A stretch of DNA of 64,000 nucleotides, from the IMG/VR virus record IMGVR_UViG_3300044294_000233; one strand, 5' to 3'. Below the pieces are notes generated by a model. It saw only the letters and a list, made by a program, of their open reading frames with translations. It was not told the origin of the DNA and did no database searches. Shown here in pieces: positions 32,495-53,048 of the stretch. The position numbers and the translations under genes were made by a program. This DNA is from a virus (lineage: Duplodnaviria; Heunggongvirae; Uroviricota; Caudoviricetes). Each line of letters opens with the position of its first letter. The first letter of the stretch is position 1.

Positions 32495-32527
32495 AACGGC
32501 CGGAAGTTTAACTTCCGGCCGTTTTTG
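32495..32527 (+). terminator. Rho-independent terminator after the MVP-like gene.
   Basis: Perfect inverted repeat aacggccggaagtt/aacttccggccgtt followed by ttttt. Confidence 0.65.
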
Positions 32528-32536
32528 TCTATACTG
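32527..32536 (+). promoter_or_regulatory. GTCTATACTG promoter-like motif (a -10-like TATACT) 28 nt upstream of the ATG at 32562.
   Basis: It is one of at least 6 occurrences of the same motif, each 15-70 nt upstream of a plus-strand start codon. Confidence 0.4.
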
Positions 32537-32561
32537 GCTTCGTTCCAAACCGGAGGCAGTC

Positions 32562-32972
32562 ATGAGAGACGAAGAATTTGAACGCCGTTTGAAAGAAACC
32601 AAGTACGTCGTGGAAGCTTCCAGCGACGAGTGTTTCATGCTGTGGGAGAAGTTCTCCAATGAGTCGATGTTCAAGCGGCCGGACTTCAACGTCCACAAGT
32701 GGGAGCAGTTGAACCCCGGAGTTGCGCCGACCATTGGCAAAATCAAAGGTCGTCCGATCTGCATGCACGTCTGGTGGTACAAGATCGACGGCGTCATGGT
32801 CATGTTCTGGGAAATGACTTCTCAGCTTCAGGACTACGTCATGGCCGAGAAGTGGCTCGAAAAGCACTGCGACCCGAAGGACGACGACGGTCGCTCGGCA
32901 AGCTGCAACTGTGCCAACTTCGCTCACTGTCTGCACTTCATCGCAGACCTCAACAAGAAGGGCAAGAAGTAA
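32562..32972 (+). CDS. Hypothetical protein.
   Basis: 136-aa ORF with a GGAGG ribosome-binding site upstream. Confidence 0.45.
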   Translation: MRDEEFERRLKETKYVVEASSDECFMLWEKFSNESMFKRPDFNVHKWEQLNPGVAPTIGKIKGRPICMHVWWYKIDGVMVMFWEMTSQLQDYVMAEKWLEKHCDPKDDDGRSASCNCANFAHCLHFIADLNKKGKK

Positions 32973-32975
32973 TCA

Positions 32976-33136
32976 TGTTCCACAAATTCTTCTTCTGGCT
33001 CGGCCAGCAGTGGCAGAAGACCAAGCGGTACTACAACCTGAAGGACAGGTCGCAGACGCACCCGCCGGCCCTTGTGTGGATCGGCGGGGGGATCGCCCTC
33101 GTCGCCCTCTTCCTCCTACTCCGATGGGTGTTCTGA
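32976..33136 (+). CDS. Small membrane protein (single transmembrane helix).
   Basis: MFHKFFFWLGQQWQ...ALVWIGGGIALVALFLLLRWVF, starting 3 nt after the previous stop. It sits inside the longer annotated frame 32699..33136. Confidence 0.3.
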
Positions 33137-33873
33137 TGTCCACAGAAGACAAATACAAGCAGGTTTCATCCTGCGAGACGATGGGACTCGGCGGCGTCGG
33201 AGTGAAGATCCTCGTCAAGTTGCCGGACGGGGTCGCACTCTCGGACGCAGAAGACGCCAACGCAAAGAACGTCGGGTACGACCTGTACCGCCGGCTACAG
33301 AACTTCGTCATTCAATCCGACCCGAAAGAGATCGAGTTCGCGAAAAAAGAAGGGGAAGAACTCCTCGCTCTTTTCGGCGACGAGAAGATCTTCGCGGAGC
33401 CGACTCACAACGAATACTCCTCGGACTCGCTGCGGCCGTGGTTCATCGTCACGACCAAGATCGGTCGCATCAAGATCGGCTGGCGTAAGCGGGTGATCGT
33501 GATCGACTGGTCGGATTCGACCAATAAGGGCCGCGCCGTCGATCTGTTCGCCACCGACGACGTGACCAAAGACCTGCACATGATCCACGCATGGGGCTAC
33601 GAGAAGGCCAAAGAGTACCTTCAGGTACTGTTGGGCCTGTCCGAACCCCAACGTCCATTACCACAAGAGCCGTTTGCTGATTTGCTGAATCAGTGTTCCG
33701 TGAGGCTTCGGAAAGTGATTGATCGAATCGGAATCAAGAACTGGAATGAACTGCTCGAACGAACACGCGAAGACCTTCTCGCAGAAGTGGGTTTCGCCGC
33801 AGGATGCCTCGCCGAACTTGAGAACCTGCTCGTTAAGTTTAAGCAGGTTCTCAAAACCCGTTCGCGTCGTTAG
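33136..33873 (+). CDS. Protein with a C-terminal RNA polymerase alpha-CTD-like helix-hairpin-helix domain.
   Basis: The ATG at 33136 overlaps the previous stop (ATGA). The C-terminus LLNQCSVRLRKVIDRIGIKNWNELLERTREDLLAEVGFAAGCLAELENLL aligns to alpha-CTD [48 protein letters not shown]. Confidence 0.45.
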   Translation: MSTEDKYKQVSSCETMGLGGVGVKILVKLPDGVALSDAEDANAKNVGYDLYRRLQNFVIQSDPKEIEFAKKEGEELLALFGDEKIFAEPTHNEYSSDSLRPWFIVTTKIGRIKIGWRKRVIVIDWSDSTNKGRAVDLFATDDVTKDLHMIHAWGYEKAKEYLQVLLGLSEPQRPLPQEPFADLLNQCSVRLRKVIDRIGIKNWNELLERTREDLLAEVGFAAGCLAELENLLVKFKQVLKTRSRR

Positions 33874-34361
33874 TTCTTGTTGTAGACGCTGTTGGCGTAA
33901 TCGCTGCCCGTGGGCCGTAGGATGATTTTGCCCATGCTGTCCGACTGACGGTCGAACTGCATGTCGCGGAAGTCTTCCTCGGCCTCTTTGCTCTTGCGGA
34001 AGAACCGCTTCAGTTCGTCGGCCACCGCCTCAACGATCCGCTTTGCCGCCTCTTCTTCTTTGATGTCGTCCATCATGAAGTCTTCGTACATCTCTTCCAG
34101 ATCGAGCAGGTACGGACGGCCGTAAGGTTCGGTGTTCTCCCGCTTCTGAACTCGGTACGCAATCGTGTCACCAACTTGATACACCCGCACGCCCCCGAAG
34201 TCGCTGTTGTCGTTGGGCGAAAGCAGGTAGATGTACGGAGTGTCTTCATCGAGAAACGGCTTCGCCTTCATCTGCCCACGCTGGAAGACCTGTTCCAGAA
34301 TGTGCAGGTGCCGCTTGCCGTCTCGCTTCCGTTTGTTGACAAATTCGAGGAAGGTTTCCAT
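33870..34361 (-). CDS. Hypothetical protein.
   Basis: 163-aa ORF. Confidence 0.4.
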   Translation of the reverse strand: METFLEFVNKRKRDGKRHLHILEQVFQRGQMKAKPFLDEDTPYIYLLSPNDNSDFGGVRVYQVGDTIAYRVQKRENTEPYGRPYLLDLEEMYEDFMMDDIKEEEAAKRIVEAVADELKRFFRKSKEAEEDFRDMQFDRQSDSMGKIILRPTGSDYANSVYNKN

Positions 34362-34657
34362 TAAACTCCGTGGCGTGCTTTGACACTTTTGTATTTGCCT
34401 ACCAACACCTCGTAACTCATCGTTGGTGTTTCGCCAATTTCTACTGCTCTCAGTGAGTTCAGAGCGGAATAAAACAAAGAGTCCAACTCATCTGCCAGAG
34501 CTTTGTAGTTTGTCTCTGGCTTCGCGTGGCGGTTTTTGCTCCACGCGGCCATCGCCGCAGCCTTGTCGGGATCGACGCCTTCGCGAAGTCCGATGTAGTC
34601 GCTAAACTTGTTCATTAGCACTTCCTCGTCAAAATCTCGTCCGCAGACGGGATACAC
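34361..34657 (-). CDS. Hypothetical protein.
   Basis: 98-aa ORF. Confidence 0.35.
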   Translation of the reverse strand: MYPVCGRDFDEEVLMNKFSDYIGLREGVDPDKAAAMAAWSKNRHAKPETNYKALADELDSLFYSALNSLRAVEIGETPTMSYEVLVGKYKSVKARHGV

Positions 34658-51943: not shown

Positions 51944-52116
51944 AACTCAATCTGACGCCCGAACAAATCGAAGAACTCAAAGACCGCATCCTCAACTTCG
52001 GCAATTTTCACTGGTGCGAGTGTTCCGAGTGCAAGTACGACTGTAGCTCGCACGCGGTTGACATCGACAAAAGCCTCCAAAAACTCGCCGAAGAAGTGCT
52101 GAAGGACGAGGAATAG
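51940..52116 (+). CDS. Small Cys-containing protein.
   Basis: 58-aa ORF containing CECSECKYDC. The ATGA overlap with the upstream gene suggests translational coupling. Confidence 0.3.
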   Translation: MKLNLTPEQIEELKDRILNFGNFHWCECSECKYDCSSHAVDIDKSLQKLAEEVLKDEE

Positions 52117-52126
52117 GTCTATATTG
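52117..52126 (+). promoter_or_regulatory. GTCTATATTG motif variant, 31 nt upstream of the ATG at 52158.
   Basis: Same family as GTCTATACTG. Confidence 0.3.
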
Positions 52127-52157
52127 GGGGCATGTGGTTTCCCCAATGAGGCGAATC

Positions 52158-52463
52158 ATGTGGACCGATGAACTGGTCGCGCGGCTGAAGAAGTACGTCG
52201 AGGCCAACAGGTTCTTCGTCGTCAAGTACCGTGGCAGCCGCGTCTACAACGTGGACGAGCGAAACAAGGAGTACAACGACACCGGCTGGCCCGCCTACTA
52301 TCTCAGGCCGTGCTACGACGACCCCTGTGACTTGGAGAAGACTCAGCCGTCCGACTTCCAAGTCTTCCTGCTCAAGCCGGTGGAATGGACGTTGGACGAG
52401 CCGGATTGGAGCGAGGCCGACGCCGAATCTTGGAACGAATACGTCAAAGCAACACAAAAGTAA
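52158..52463 (+). CDS. Hypothetical acidic protein.
   Basis: The ATG at 52158 has a GAGG ribosome-binding site 9 nt upstream and is the preferred start over the annotated 52134. Confidence 0.4.
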   Translation: MWTDELVARLKKYVEANRFFVVKYRGSRVYNVDERNKEYNDTGWPAYYLRPCYDDPCDLEKTQPSDFQVFLLKPVEWTLDEPDWSEADAESWNEYVKATQK

Positions 52464-52518
52464 TCTTCACATCCCCCGTAAGTTGGCTTACAATGGAGCC
52501 AACTTACGGGGGATCGTC

Positions 52519-53019
52519 ATGTCCAAAGCAGGCAAAATGCACGGCGAGATCGTCAGCGAAGAAGAAGTCGCGAAGGGACTCGGCTTCGCAAACGTCGATG
52601 AGTTCCGCCGCTGGCAAACCGAACTCGGCCACAAGAAAGGGGAACTCGAATTCGCACTTTCCGAAGCCAAGCGGGAGTCGCGCCGCTTCCGATGGGCCGG
52701 AATGCGTATGGAGTTCATGCTCGGCAAGGCCGAAGCCTATCTCCAGACCGAACTCAACGCCGCCAAGCACCACGTCGCCAAACTCGAAAATTCCGGGGTA
52801 ATGGCTGAAGGGGCCATGAACGAGAACTCGGAGATGGCGGCAGTCAAAGACACCATCGAGATTCTCGAAAAGCTGCTCCTCGGTATCCGCGTCGTCTGCA
52901 ACAGGGACGTTGACTGGAAGCACGTTCTGGAAGACTGGCTCGGTCAGTTCAACAAGTCCGATGAAGAGATCTTTAAGGCCAAACAAGCGGCCGAAGCCCA
53001 ACCGGAAAGTGGTTCTTGA
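52519..53019 (+). CDS. Hypothetical protein.
   Basis: ATG at 52519, after a hairpin. It lies inside the longer annotated frame 52231..53019. Confidence 0.4.
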   Translation: MSKAGKMHGEIVSEEEVAKGLGFANVDEFRRWQTELGHKKGELEFALSEAKRESRRFRWAGMRMEFMLGKAEAYLQTELNAAKHHVAKLENSGVMAEGAMNENSEMAAVKDTIEILEKLLLGIRVVCNRDVDWKHVLEDWLGQFNKSDEEIFKAKQAAEAQPESGS

Positions 53020-53038
53020 ATCCCGAAGGGACACCGGC

Positions 53039-53048
53039 GTCTATACTG
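53039..53048 (+). promoter_or_regulatory. GTCTATACTG motif in the loop of the hairpin 53028-53058, 28 nt upstream of the ATG at 53076.
   Basis: Exact 10-mer. Confidence 0.35.

Follow-up and report, generated by a model that had tools for sequence, protein, structure and literature searches.

A ten-base word kept in related huge phages is very probably a -35-independent promoter -10 box

The word GTCTATACTG, which recurs upstream of small accessory genes in a huge tailed phage, is, judged from its sequence context, very probably the -10 box of a promoter that acts independently of a -35 element and has been kept by selection in related phages. The stretch of DNA analyzed here (the window) comprises 64,000 nucleotides, or roughly a quarter of the genome, which measures at least 254 kb. 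The phage is a myovirus whose baseplate is T4-like, with gp25 and gp6-like wedge proteins, and its host phylum is tentatively Planctomycetota. Syntenic relatives exhibit GC contents of 45-59% and encode proteins that are 68-86% identical; L003, L004, L005, L077, L078, and L079 were used for site-by-site comparison.

The window contains four exact copies of GTCTATACTG, at positions 32527, 42146, 43262, and 53039 as the first-pass annotation had stated, all of them on the plus strand. This compares with 0.02 expected copies, and none of 100 dinucleotide shuffles reached four. With regard to three near-copies proposed earlier, GTCTATATTG at 52117 and GGCTATACTT at 41537 proved to be true variants, likewise located on the plus strand, while TCTATAACTG at 45357 is part of a separate canonical promoter. 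The six boxes are found 16-71 nt before a start codon, counted from the end of the motif, which agrees to within one nucleotide with the 15-70 nt suggested at first. Across the window and the relatives, every site is on the coding strand and has a start codon 16-110 nt downstream; as background, 2.2% of strand-positions are intergenic and no more than 100 nt upstream of a co-oriented start. The remaining matches with one mismatch in the window (3907+, 36697-, 54436+, and 61636-) are located within genes or antisense to them, lack conservation among the relatives, and do not rise above noise in a PWM scan. The genes preceded by the box are small accessory genes of a plus-strand module at 32-53 kb, and the structural operons in the window lack it.

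At orthologous intergenic sites the box is retained although the flanks have diverged. The copy at 32527-32536, 25 nt before the ATG of a 136-aa gene (32562-32972, phrog_18096), directly follows the intrinsic terminator (32490-32526, plus strand; A-tract, GC stem, and T-run) of an MVP-like gene (30437-32476). Its orthologs are GTCTATATTG in L003 (9103), GTCTATACTG in L004 (12700), and GCCTATACTG in L005 (12730), and the sole invariant block in the alignment of this site (A2) is TTTTTG-C-TATA-TG. The variant at 41537-41546 lies between divergent genes, 16 nt upstream of the ATG of a 181-aa gene (41563-42108), and corresponds to GCCTATACTT in L077 (2306). For the copy at 42146-42155, 34 nt before the ATG of a 368-aa gene (42190-43296), orthologs are present in L077 (2942), L005 (22522), L079 (2494), and L078 (about 3606, ACCTATACTT), and CTATACT is invariant in the respective alignment (A3). 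The variant at 52117-52126 directly adjoins the stop codon of the preceding gene (51940-52116) and lies 31 nt before the ATG of a 101-aa gene (52158-52463); its ortholog in L077 (12877) is the exact consensus GTCTATACTG. The copy at 53039-53048, 27 nt before the ATG of a 126-aa gene (53076-53456), is matched by an exact box in L077 (13859). The box also appears at new intergenic sites in relatives, always co-oriented with the downstream gene start; since the extra boxes of L079 at 4696 and 7538 have no counterpart in the window, sites turn over while the word itself is kept.

The copy at 43262-43271 is not intergenic, because it resides inside the last 35 nt of gene 42190-43296, where it is embedded in the final codons (G-L-Y-W), 71 nt before the ATG of a 103-aa DUF350-like gene (43343-43654). 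Orthologous sites read TCCTATACTG in L077 (4054), GCCTATACTG in L078 (4643), and GTCTATACTA in L079 (3571). The Leu codon CTA, which accounts for 3.4% of the Leu codons in the window, is kept at this box in four genomes, and the retention of such a rare codon indicates that the in-gene copy is under constraint at the DNA level.

Folding of the window recovered the hairpins that had been described beside 32527 and 42146 and around 53039. The compact terminator-promoter unit derived from them holds at 32527, where four genomes possess strong hairpins with unrelated stems, but not at 42146 and 53039. The hairpin at 32490-32528 (-30.1 kcal/mol, z -6.4) is followed by a T run, and its orthologs fold at -31 to -33 kcal/mol. 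As the hairpin at 42107-42148 (-14.5 kcal/mol, z -2.9) is weak in relatives and that at 53027-53059 (-26.2 kcal/mol, z -4.9), which carries the box in its loop in the window genome, is absent at the orthologous site in L077 (z -0.14), the hairpins do not belong to the box element, and the 32490-32526 terminator is the only conserved one among those associated with boxes. A separate observation is that -10 boxes recur in the loops of terminator hairpins (38664-38693, 42107-42148, 52478-52513, and 53027-53059); a conserved structured RNA is located at 48541-48731.

Information content, computed over 20 sites from the window and five relatives, amounts to about 17 bits, is confined to 10 columns and yields the family consensus G-Y-C-TATACT-G. 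When TATACT is numbered as -12 to -7, the columns comprise G at -15 (19 of 20 sites), T, C, or G at -14 (12, 7, and 1 sites), C at -13 and TATA (all sites), C at -8 (18 sites), T at -7 (all sites), and G at -6 (17 sites), followed by GC-rich sequence. The hexamer reads TATA[C/T]T at all 20 sites and conforms to the sigma70-family TAnnnT with its A2 and T6, while the columns at -15 and -14 do not form the TG of extended -10 promoters. A canonical -35/-10 arrangement was not found: with a spacing of 16-18 nt the best TTGACA match at the boxes averages 2.8 of 6 positions vs. 2.4 at random positions, and the -35 columns carry no information over the 20 sites; the window's canonical promoters, by comparison, match at 5 of 6. 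The first-pass annotation had proposed a -10 TATACT within a conserved extended context, and excess, co-orientation, position before starts, conservation, gain and loss of sites, in-gene constraint, and the sigma70-family core all speak for it.

Other promoter-like sites also have the CTATA core. Of its 25 occurrences, 11 lie between genes and precede a co-oriented start (binomial P about 2e-12). The element at 45357 carries TTTACA exactly 17 nt upstream of TATAAC, as noted before, and was rejected as a box variant, since this canonical TTTACA-N17-TATAAC promoter (45336-45364, plus strand) represents a different class; it lies downstream of a terminator (45289-45322), the end of TCTATAACTG is 30 nt from the start of a 92-aa gene (45397-45675), and the promoter is conserved in L077 (about 6090-6120) and L079 (5608). 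A tandem canonical promoter, TTGACA-N17-GACAAT (42105-42133, plus strand; scanner match 10/12), is located upstream of the 42146 box, with its TTGACA overlapping the stop codon of gene 41563-42108 and its -10 in the loop of the weak hairpin mentioned above; TTGACAA is invariant in five genomes and is followed 17-18 nt downstream by GATAAC, TAAATT, or TATACT. A further canonical promoter, TTTACA-N17-(C)TATAAC (38652-38693, plus strand), is situated downstream of the tRNA nucleotidyltransferase gene, has its -10 in the loop of the bidirectional terminator hairpin 38664-38693 and is conserved in L003, L004, and L005. A different flavor of the CTATA core emerged on the minus strand from a four-genome comparison, i.e., GGAAAACG..GGGAGTCATTTA..GGCTATATA at 29373-29440, with CTATATA at 29386, separated by 4-5 nt from the ATG of the first gene (164 aa) of the tail/baseplate operon. 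The minus-strand CCTATATA at 36574-36588 has the same flavor and precedes by 7 nt the ATG of a 163-aa gene (36083-36574) with a weak match to terminase small subunit; its counterparts in L003, L004, and L005 have TATATA 5-8 nt before ATG. Structural and packaging (late) operons feature CTATATA 4-7 nt before ATG instead of the box.

With moderate confidence, we regard the box as the -10 region of a -35-less phage promoter class that is read by host core RNA polymerase carrying a sigma70-family sigma factor. TATACT would constitute the -12 to -7 hexamer, and additional contacts by the conserved G(-15), Y(-14), C(-13), and G(-6) would make up for the absent -35 contact. With a start some 6-8 nt downstream of the box, transcripts would have 5' leaders of about 10-65 nt, in which the Shine-Dalgarno site of the next gene is contained, such that the boxes may restart transcription of the small accessory genes in the module, in one conserved case right after an intrinsic terminator. 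Promoter activity, start site, sigma identity, and timing of expression are what we infer for the boxes. Arguing against this explanation are G-Y at -15/-14 instead of the classical extended -10 TG, a discriminator of G plus GC-rich sequence in place of the sigma-S TAA, and a tentative host phylum that is not known to have RpoS; the near-invariance over 10 bases exceeds what host sigma70 promoters usually show and leaves room for a dedicated phage factor. CTATAnT was present in 2 of 23 upstream regions of two planctomycete genome snippets, so the box is not obviously the general -10 preference of the host.

A possible but, in our view, less probable reader is a sigma factor or an RNA polymerase encoded by the phage, an idea already raised in the first-pass annotation; the box would then mark a temporal class (middle or late) specific to the phage, in the manner of T4 late promoters and gp55. 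An information content of about 17 bits within one 10-bp element that has no -35 is a typical mark of phage-specific promoter classes, relatives that differ in GC content as given above keep the exact word, and the coexisting canonical TTGACA/TTTACA-N17-TAnnnT promoters could form an early class. In eleven distant members of the clade, a gene for a sigma70-family protein of about 287 aa is located near the AAA ATPase gene, and most of the genome lies outside the window. Some huge phages are equipped with their own sigma70 or AsiA-like proteins (PMC7162821). On the other hand, a sigma factor, an RNA polymerase subunit, or a gp55/gp33-like protein was not detected among the approximately 60 window proteins by Pfam, PHROGs, and tblastn, an HMM of the clade's sigma did not match any of them, neither AsiA-, gp39-, nor gp76-like proteins were identified in the window, and the syntenic region of close relatives revealed no sigma or RNA polymerase gene. 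Furthermore, the box is a textbook sigma70-family -10 sequence, its 10 bp are too short for promoters of single-subunit RNA polymerases, and it stands before small accessory genes while the structural operons carry a different element. Rather doubtful is the more far-reaching proposal of a dedicated temporal class that would be served either by a phage sigma70-family factor with sigma-S-like C(-13) specificity or by host polymerase after a phage protein disables -35 recognition, with the -10 elements in hairpin loops as deliberate overlaps of terminator and promoter. In such a megaphage, probably one that infects Planctomycetota, the hairpin-loop -10s would be sensitive to read-through or supercoiling rather than reflect simple compaction.

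An unlikely explanation is that the bases around TATACT are the site of a regulator, i.e., a phage or host operator or activator site overlapping ordinary weak promoters. Conservation does extend past the hexamer to G-Y-C and the 3' G, an invariance common in operators, and L005 encodes an RNA polymerase alpha-CTD-domain protein as well as an HTH protein beside its first box-bearing gene. However, the box is asymmetric (self-complementary in TATA only), single at each site and strictly co-oriented, and the comparison across sites identified neither a second half-site, a fixed-distance partner, nor a regulator. Quite improbable is a role in RNA, be it as an RNase processing site, a 5'-UTR stabilizer, or a translational operator in polycistronic transcripts. 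The box is always found on the sense strand upstream of the ribosome-binding site at variable distance, and no terminator separates it from the upstream gene at 43262 and 52117, so that read-through would transcribe it; yet the best-conserved site directly follows the T-run of a strong terminator, a conserved secondary structure is not apparent (see the hairpins at 42146 and 53039), and the box matches a DNA promoter consensus exactly. Chance recurrence or a functionless remnant of duplicated or mobile sequence, for which a few more downstream bases shared by 32527 and 43262 (GTCTATACTGGCT..GTTCCA) could be quoted, is effectively refuted by the shuffles, the non-random positions, the alignments of conserved sites in diverged flanks and a repeat search in which no longer repeat family contained the box.

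As a type of element, the box is ordinary, short conserved promoter words being common in phages. For uncultivated huge phages of this clade no transcription signals had been known, and little is available on the promoters of their probable hosts, on which a literature search found nothing. Together, the box, the canonical promoters, and the CTATATA-plus-ATG element provide a first promoter map for this phage group that can be used for operon annotation, prediction of early and late gene classes, and the design of reporter tests. The box would also provide a specific example, outside the Proteobacteria, of a -10 box that is sigma-S-like and independent of a -35.

Several known promoter systems offer themselves for comparison. 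Promoters of single-subunit RNA polymerases are marked by conservation over some 17-23 bp or by a small hairpin that is conserved. This type (T7-like or N4 hairpin) was rejected based on 10 conserved bp, the non-conserved hairpin at 53039, and the lack of an RNA polymerase gene in the window. In T4-type phages, promoter-early stem-loop (PeSL) cassettes are promoter plus stem-loop units that flank small ORFan genes. The arrangement studied here is similar in that promoter/stem-loop units neighbor small ORFan genes in a plastic region and sites are gained and lost between relatives, but the box copies share 10 bp only, and the stem-loop lies upstream as a terminator, conserved at one site. A mobile cassette of this kind was rejected, as the repeat search revealed no cassette-length homology between box copies. 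T4 late promoters, which are recognized by gp55 together with gp33 and the sliding clamp, resemble the box in consisting of a single short AT-rich element (about 8-10 bp) at -10 without a -35. Their consensus, TATAAATA (PMC5587285), is unlike the box, and they precede structural genes, whereas the box precedes small accessory ones. The T4-type late promoter was rejected on account of this difference in sequence, the absence of the box from structural operons, and the lack of a gp55/gp33 match in PHROGs and Pfam. Alphaproteobacterial housekeeping promoters, e.g., in Sinorhizobium meliloti, have a CTATAT -10 with the same conserved C directly 5' of TATA, but combine it with a clear CTTGAC -35 box that has no equivalent here, and nothing points to an alphaproteobacterial host. 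The extended -10 (TGn) class includes middle and late promoters that dispense with a -35, in phages that block sigma region 4, as exemplified by T4 AsiA and by Thermus phage P23-45. Promoters of this class share with the box a -10 hexamer, conserved bases just upstream, independence from a -35, and the presence of canonical promoters alongside, and differ by T-G-n in place of G-Y-C at -15 to -13.

Promoters of sigma-S (RpoS) are a Proteobacterial class, whereas the likely host phylum of this phage, Planctomycetota, is not known to have RpoS. Published versions of the sigma-S -10 consensus were, successively, TATACT, CTATACT, and KCTAYRCTTAA, and these promoters are generally believed to have no -35 consensus (PMC5650638). 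In P. putida, RpoS was demonstrated to bind CTATACT (PMC11784136). The box has an identical CTATACT core and likewise no -35 consensus: its invariant C(-13) and TATACT at 18 of 20 sites agree with the sigma-S combination of C(-13) and TAYACT, and C(-8) as well as T(-14) at 12 of 20 sites add to the likeness. Differences concern position -14, which is C at 7 of 20 sites where sigma-S has K (T or G, present at 13 sites of the box), the G and GC-rich sequence after the hexamer where sigma-S has TAA, such that the full KCTAYRCTTAA is not matched, and the conserved G(-15), which does not occur in the sigma-S consensus. Given the CTATACT sequence, the C at -13, and the lack of a -35 consensus, the box probably works like the sigma-S-type class, whether or not it belongs to it.

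The 10-mer GTCTATACTG, here called the box (family consensus G-Y-C-TATACT-G), is present in four exact copies in the 64-kb window, at 32527, 42146, 43262 and 53039, all on the plus strand as listed in the first-pass annotation, against 0.02 copies expected; none of 100 dinucleotide-preserving shuffles reached four. With one mismatch allowed, nine matches were obtained vs. 0.9 expected. Among the additional one-mismatch matches the sole intergenic one is that at 52117 (GTCTATATTG), and those at 3907 (+), 36697 (-), 54436 (+) and 61636 (-) lie within genes or antisense to genes. 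The close variants previously noticed at 52117 and at 41537 (GGCTATACTT) are both present. On a gene map based on codon usage, every box site is located 16-71 nt 5' of a plus-strand start codon equipped with a Shine-Dalgarno sequence, in good agreement with the 15-70 nt reported before. The copy at 43262 is not intergenic but resides within the final 35 nt of gene 42190-43296, which encodes a 368-aa protein. Further copies were not found in approximately 5 kb past the right end and 1.4 kb past the left end, covered by the fetched stretches L081 and L083.

Across 20 sites, the information amounts to about 17 bits and is restricted to ten columns, i.e., G (19/20), T, C or G (12, 7 and 1 sites, respectively), C (20/20), T-A-T-A (20/20 each), C (18/20), T (20/20) and G (17/20), while a weak T bias just 5' of the box represents terminator tails. 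A -35 signal was not found: with spacers of 16-18 nt, the mean score of the best match to TTGACA is 2.8/6, compared with 2.4/6 at random positions and 5/6 at the canonical promoters of the window. When a position weight matrix was built solely from the sites of relatives, five window sites emerged as the top intergenic matches, with noise below about 14 bits. No longer repeat family containing the box was found and the box is therefore not the tip of a duplicated or mobile segment. A reading as palindromic operator or restriction site was rejected, self-complementarity being limited to the central TATA.

Footprinting was performed with syntenic DNA from five relatives: one contig comprising stretches L003 and L077 (major-vault-protein (MVP)-like protein 86% identical, GC 0.53), the 586-kb NCBI contig JAWVGZ010000010.1 comprising L004 and L078 (MVP 75% identical, GC 0.45), L005 (MVP 76%, GC 0.59), L079 (AAA ATPase 72%, GC 0.58) and L080. 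In these relatives, the box is retained at orthologous positions amid diverged flanks. At the site after the MVP-like gene (30437-32476, +), the four genomes carry GTCTATACTG, GTCTATATTG, GTCTATACTG and GCCTATACTG, and alignment A2 shows TTTTTG-C-TATA-TG as the sole invariant block located between stop codon and ribosome-binding site. Five genomes have the box before the 368-aa gene, and CTATACT does not vary among them in alignment A3. The sites at 52117, 53039 and 41537 have orthologues at 12877 (exact consensus), 13859 and 2306 of L077, respectively. Two additional boxes in L079 (4696 and 7538) precede genes whose window orthologues are devoid of it; sites have therefore been gained and lost while the same word stayed in use. 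The copy inside the 3' end of the 368-aa gene is present in four genomes and encodes G/V/C-L-Y-W/Y, the leucine codon being CTA in all four, a codon that accounts for only 3.4% of the leucine codons in the window. Since this rare codon has been kept throughout, the in-gene copy points to selection that would act on the DNA sequence itself. The box is absent from more distant members of the clade (AAA identity 58% or less, GC 27-46%). The GTCTAGTGTTG words in stretch L012 (2700-4200) bear a superficial likeness to the box and were rejected as its cousins; they belong to a coding tandem repeat (period about 130 nt), one per unit, and are unrelated to promoters. Based on the excess over chance, conservation and positions, the principal reading of the first-pass annotation, that of a -10 promoter box whose conserved context is extended, holds, its function being what we infer from sequence.

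The hairpins described earlier before 32527 and 42146 and around 53039 are real as judged by folding energies: 32490-32528 (-30.1 kcal/mol, z -6.4, followed by a T run), 42107-42148 (-14.5 kcal/mol, z -2.9) and 53027-53059 (-26.2 kcal/mol, z -4.9, box in the loop). The terminator before 32527 retains its structure in 4/4 genomes (-30 to -33 kcal/mol, z -6 to -8.6), the stems themselves being unrelated in sequence; since such stems defy alignment, as required for RNAalifold, each terminator was folded as a single sequence. In relatives, folding before 42146 is weak (z about -1.3), and L077 has no hairpin around its counterpart of 53039 (z -0.14). The proposed terminator-promoter unit is thus genuine and conserved at 32527 but does not extend to the other two sites, and for the same reason the box does not need a hairpin. 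Four promoters on the plus strand (38652-38693, 42105-42148, 52470-52513 and 53027-53059) have their -10 in a stable hairpin loop; the -35, where present, is located just 5' of the stem, and the 5' arm of the stem constitutes the spacer. At 38664-38693, where TTTACA-N17-TATAAC lies within a bidirectional terminator, the element has been kept in L003, L004 and L005, and hairpin 52478-52513 reaches -36.7 kcal/mol (z -10.5). Such promoters look like a recurrent design with overlapping terminator and promoter.

Classical promoters (TTGACA or TTTACA, 17 nt, TAnnnT) were located upstream of 30114, 38716, 45397, 48166, 52519 and 55713 (-), and relatives share two of them (38652-38680 and 45336-45364). 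The third suggested variant of the box, TCTATAACTG at 45357, is indeed present, with TTTACA 17 nt upstream of TATAAC, but belongs to this separate canonical class since 45336-45364 is a classical TTTACA-N17-TATAAC promoter. A tandem canonical promoter lies upstream of 42146; its TTGACA, which does not vary among five genomes, shares bases with the stop codon in front of it, and a -10-like hexamer follows 17-18 nt downstream in four of the five, being less clear in L005. Many promoter-like sites in the window have the pentamer CTATA as their core: 11 of its 25 occurrences are intergenic and 13-42 nt upstream of a co-oriented start (2.2% expected, binomial P about 2e-12). It appears as TTTACA-N17-CTATAAC (flavour I), as the box (flavour II) and as CTATATA or CTATAAT only 4-7 nt before ATG (flavour III). 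Minus-strand flavour III sites were found at 29386, at the head of the tail/baseplate operon (29373-29440 block), at 36588 (36574-36588), at the head of an operon starting with a terS-like gene, and at 10987 (10974-10987), where CTATAAT lies 6 nt before the ATG of a LAGLIDADG endonuclease gene; the starts for 29386 (29375) and 10987 (10974) derive from gene calls in relatives, whereas the window gene map gave 23 and 331 nt. The 29386 site is part of a block conserved in four genomes, in which GGAAAACG, GGGAGTCATTTA and GGCTATATA are followed after 4-5 nt by ATG. This arrangement hints at late transcripts with no leader or hardly any, and at a putative separate class of late promoters.

Between a 124-aa gene and the operon of a 172-aa gene and the AAA ATPase, a non-coding gap of about 190 nt (48541-48731, +) is strongly conserved in four genomes (the window, L077 9295-9485, L079 9340-9557 and L078 9536-9722). 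It features covarying hairpins, e.g., GCGGGTGCGCACCCGT, GCAGGGTGCGCACCCTGC, GCGGTTGCGCAACCGC and GTTGATATGCGCAATCAAC, with compensatory changes in 10 of 49 pairs according to RNAalifold; its 3' end, immediately before the ribosome-binding site, is formed by a terminator-like hairpin with a T run. Rfam yielded no matches in the window at gathering thresholds and merely weak, chance-level ones for 48500-48780 (best: RsmW, 18 bits, E 0.5). The element is a candidate for a new structured leader, riboswitch-like attenuator or sRNA of huge phages.

That the window derives from a huge phage follows from proteins identical to its own on a 253,983-bp JGI contig, from homologues on contigs of 270-690 kb, and from MVP-like homologues (about 40% identity) in LR756500 (462 kb) and LR756501 (735 kb), two unannotated 'uncultured phage' genomes and the only GenBank phage records with such a homologue. 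The largest genome reported in a study of huge phages is 735 kb (PMC7162821). Megablast with 24 kb of the window gave no match among GenBank phages, the MVP-like protein found no relative in IMG/VR, and the AAA ATPase and protein P0005 retrieved nothing from GTDB genomes. The minus strand between 1.4 and 29 kb carries T4-like baseplate genes (gp25 wedge, gp6-like wedge, hub with OB domain, P2-I-like protein, tail-fibre N-terminal domain, 2599-aa protein); the plus-strand module contains small genes, mostly of unknown function, in addition to the MVP-like protein, tRNA nucleotidyltransferase, AAA ATPase and a GmrSD-N protein. The LAGLIDADG homing endonuclease (9955-10974, -), with C-terminal HTH domains, lies in a lower-GC patch (GC3 0.51) inside the tail/baseplate module. 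A 477-aa ORF without Pfam match (18756-20189, -; GC3 0.33 vs. about 0.75 in its neighbours), situated in a low-GC stretch (18610-20198, GC 0.45), has the appearance of a foreign gene that entered the baseplate operon recently. Proteins with the MVP shoulder domain are widespread in this clade (>2000 homologues). In the window, the MVP-like gene is split into a 108-aa ORF (30114-30440, +), which matches residues 1-99 of the 864-aa homologue P0002 at 85% identity, and a 679-aa ORF (30437-32476, +) covering the remainder, with a 4-nt overlap; a frameshift, the loss of about 77 residues by deletion or faulty assembly could be the cause.

The only clue to the host is the ADP-ribosylglycohydrolase (62527-63657, -), whose named bacterial homologues (60-63% identical) all stem from Planctomycetota, namely Rubinisphaera margarita, Thalassoroseus pseudoceratinae and a Pirellulales MAG; this hints, tentatively, at a planctomycete, with which the GC content of 56% and canonical Shine-Dalgarno sites are compatible. 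A literature search for planctomycete promoter motifs gave no relevant result.

With regard to the factor reading the box, a sigma factor of the host appears on balance probable and is rated above a factor encoded by the phage itself, which we consider rather unlikely. A phage factor would be in line with the window constituting about a quarter of the genome and with the occurrence of own sigma70 or AsiA-like proteins in some huge phages (PMC7162821). CTATAnT is present in only 2 of 23 upstream regions from two 21-kb planctomycete snippets, a sample with tentative host assignment that is too small to define a host -10 preference and weakly suggests that the box is not simply the general -10 preference of the host. 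When about 60 window proteins were compared with Pfam and PHROGs, none resembled a sigma factor, an RNA polymerase subunit or gp55/gp33, tblastn with regions 2 and 4 of RpoD and RpoS detected no sigma gene in the window, and neither did an HMM of the sigma proteins of the clade (about 287 aa). By tblastn, eleven distant AT-rich members (L033, L035, L037, L038, L045, L048, L050, L052, L054, L058, e.g., 16309-17151, and L074) have a sigma70-family gene of this size (regions 2 and 4) at a distance of 2-8 kb downstream from the AAA gene. AT-rich members repeat TAnnTTTG words (TACATTTGT, TATATTTGT), up to 11 per 21 kb; the window and its close relatives lack both gene and repeats. These words are of the Bacteroidota -7 type and look like Bacteroidota-type promoters. 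This type fits the prediction of Bacteroidetes as hosts of the largest Mahaphages (PMC7162821). In L005, the stretch just after the first box-bearing gene (12933-13868) encodes a 237-aa protein whose Pfam match is an RNA polymerase alpha C-terminal domain (E 2e-9) and, after it, an HTH_17 protein; the window gene at the corresponding position (33124-33873) matched no Pfam family.

Binding of a regulator to the box as operator is unlikely, given that the box is asymmetric, single-copy and strictly oriented. A signal acting in the transcript is likewise unlikely: the box matches a DNA promoter consensus, comes after a strong terminator at the best-conserved site and is without conserved structural context. 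Chance or a repeat remnant is excluded by the expectation of 0.02 copies, non-random positions, conserved orthologous sites and the lack of a longer repeat family.

As a promoter element, the box would consist of a sigma70-family -10 hexamer, TATACT (A at position 2, T at position 6), flanked by conserved bases at -15 to -13 and -6 relative to the presumed transcription start, the extra bases replacing the -35 contact in a -35-independent promoter read by a sigma70-family holoenzyme. This model is the most economical because the core CTATACT equals the -10 consensus of sigma-S, a class held to lack a -35 consensus. That consensus has been given as TATACT, then CTATACT and then KCTAYRCTTAA, with the general view of no -35 consensus (PMC5650638), and RpoS binds CTATACT in Pseudomonas putida (PMC11784136). 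The identical core and the missing -35 consensus support a box that may work like a sigma-S-type -10, whereas it differs from the full sigma-S consensus in often having C at -14 and in lacking TAA after the hexamer. RpoS, which Planctomycetota are not known to possess, is unlikely if the host is a planctomycete, and an actual RpoS promoter is not supported. The classical extended -10, with TG at -15/-14, was tested for as well and does not describe the box. The sites provide a first promoter map, with concrete testable positions, for an uncultivated lineage of huge phages, and the box represents a new sequence within well-known kinds of elements, i.e., short conserved phage promoter words and -35-independent -10 promoters.
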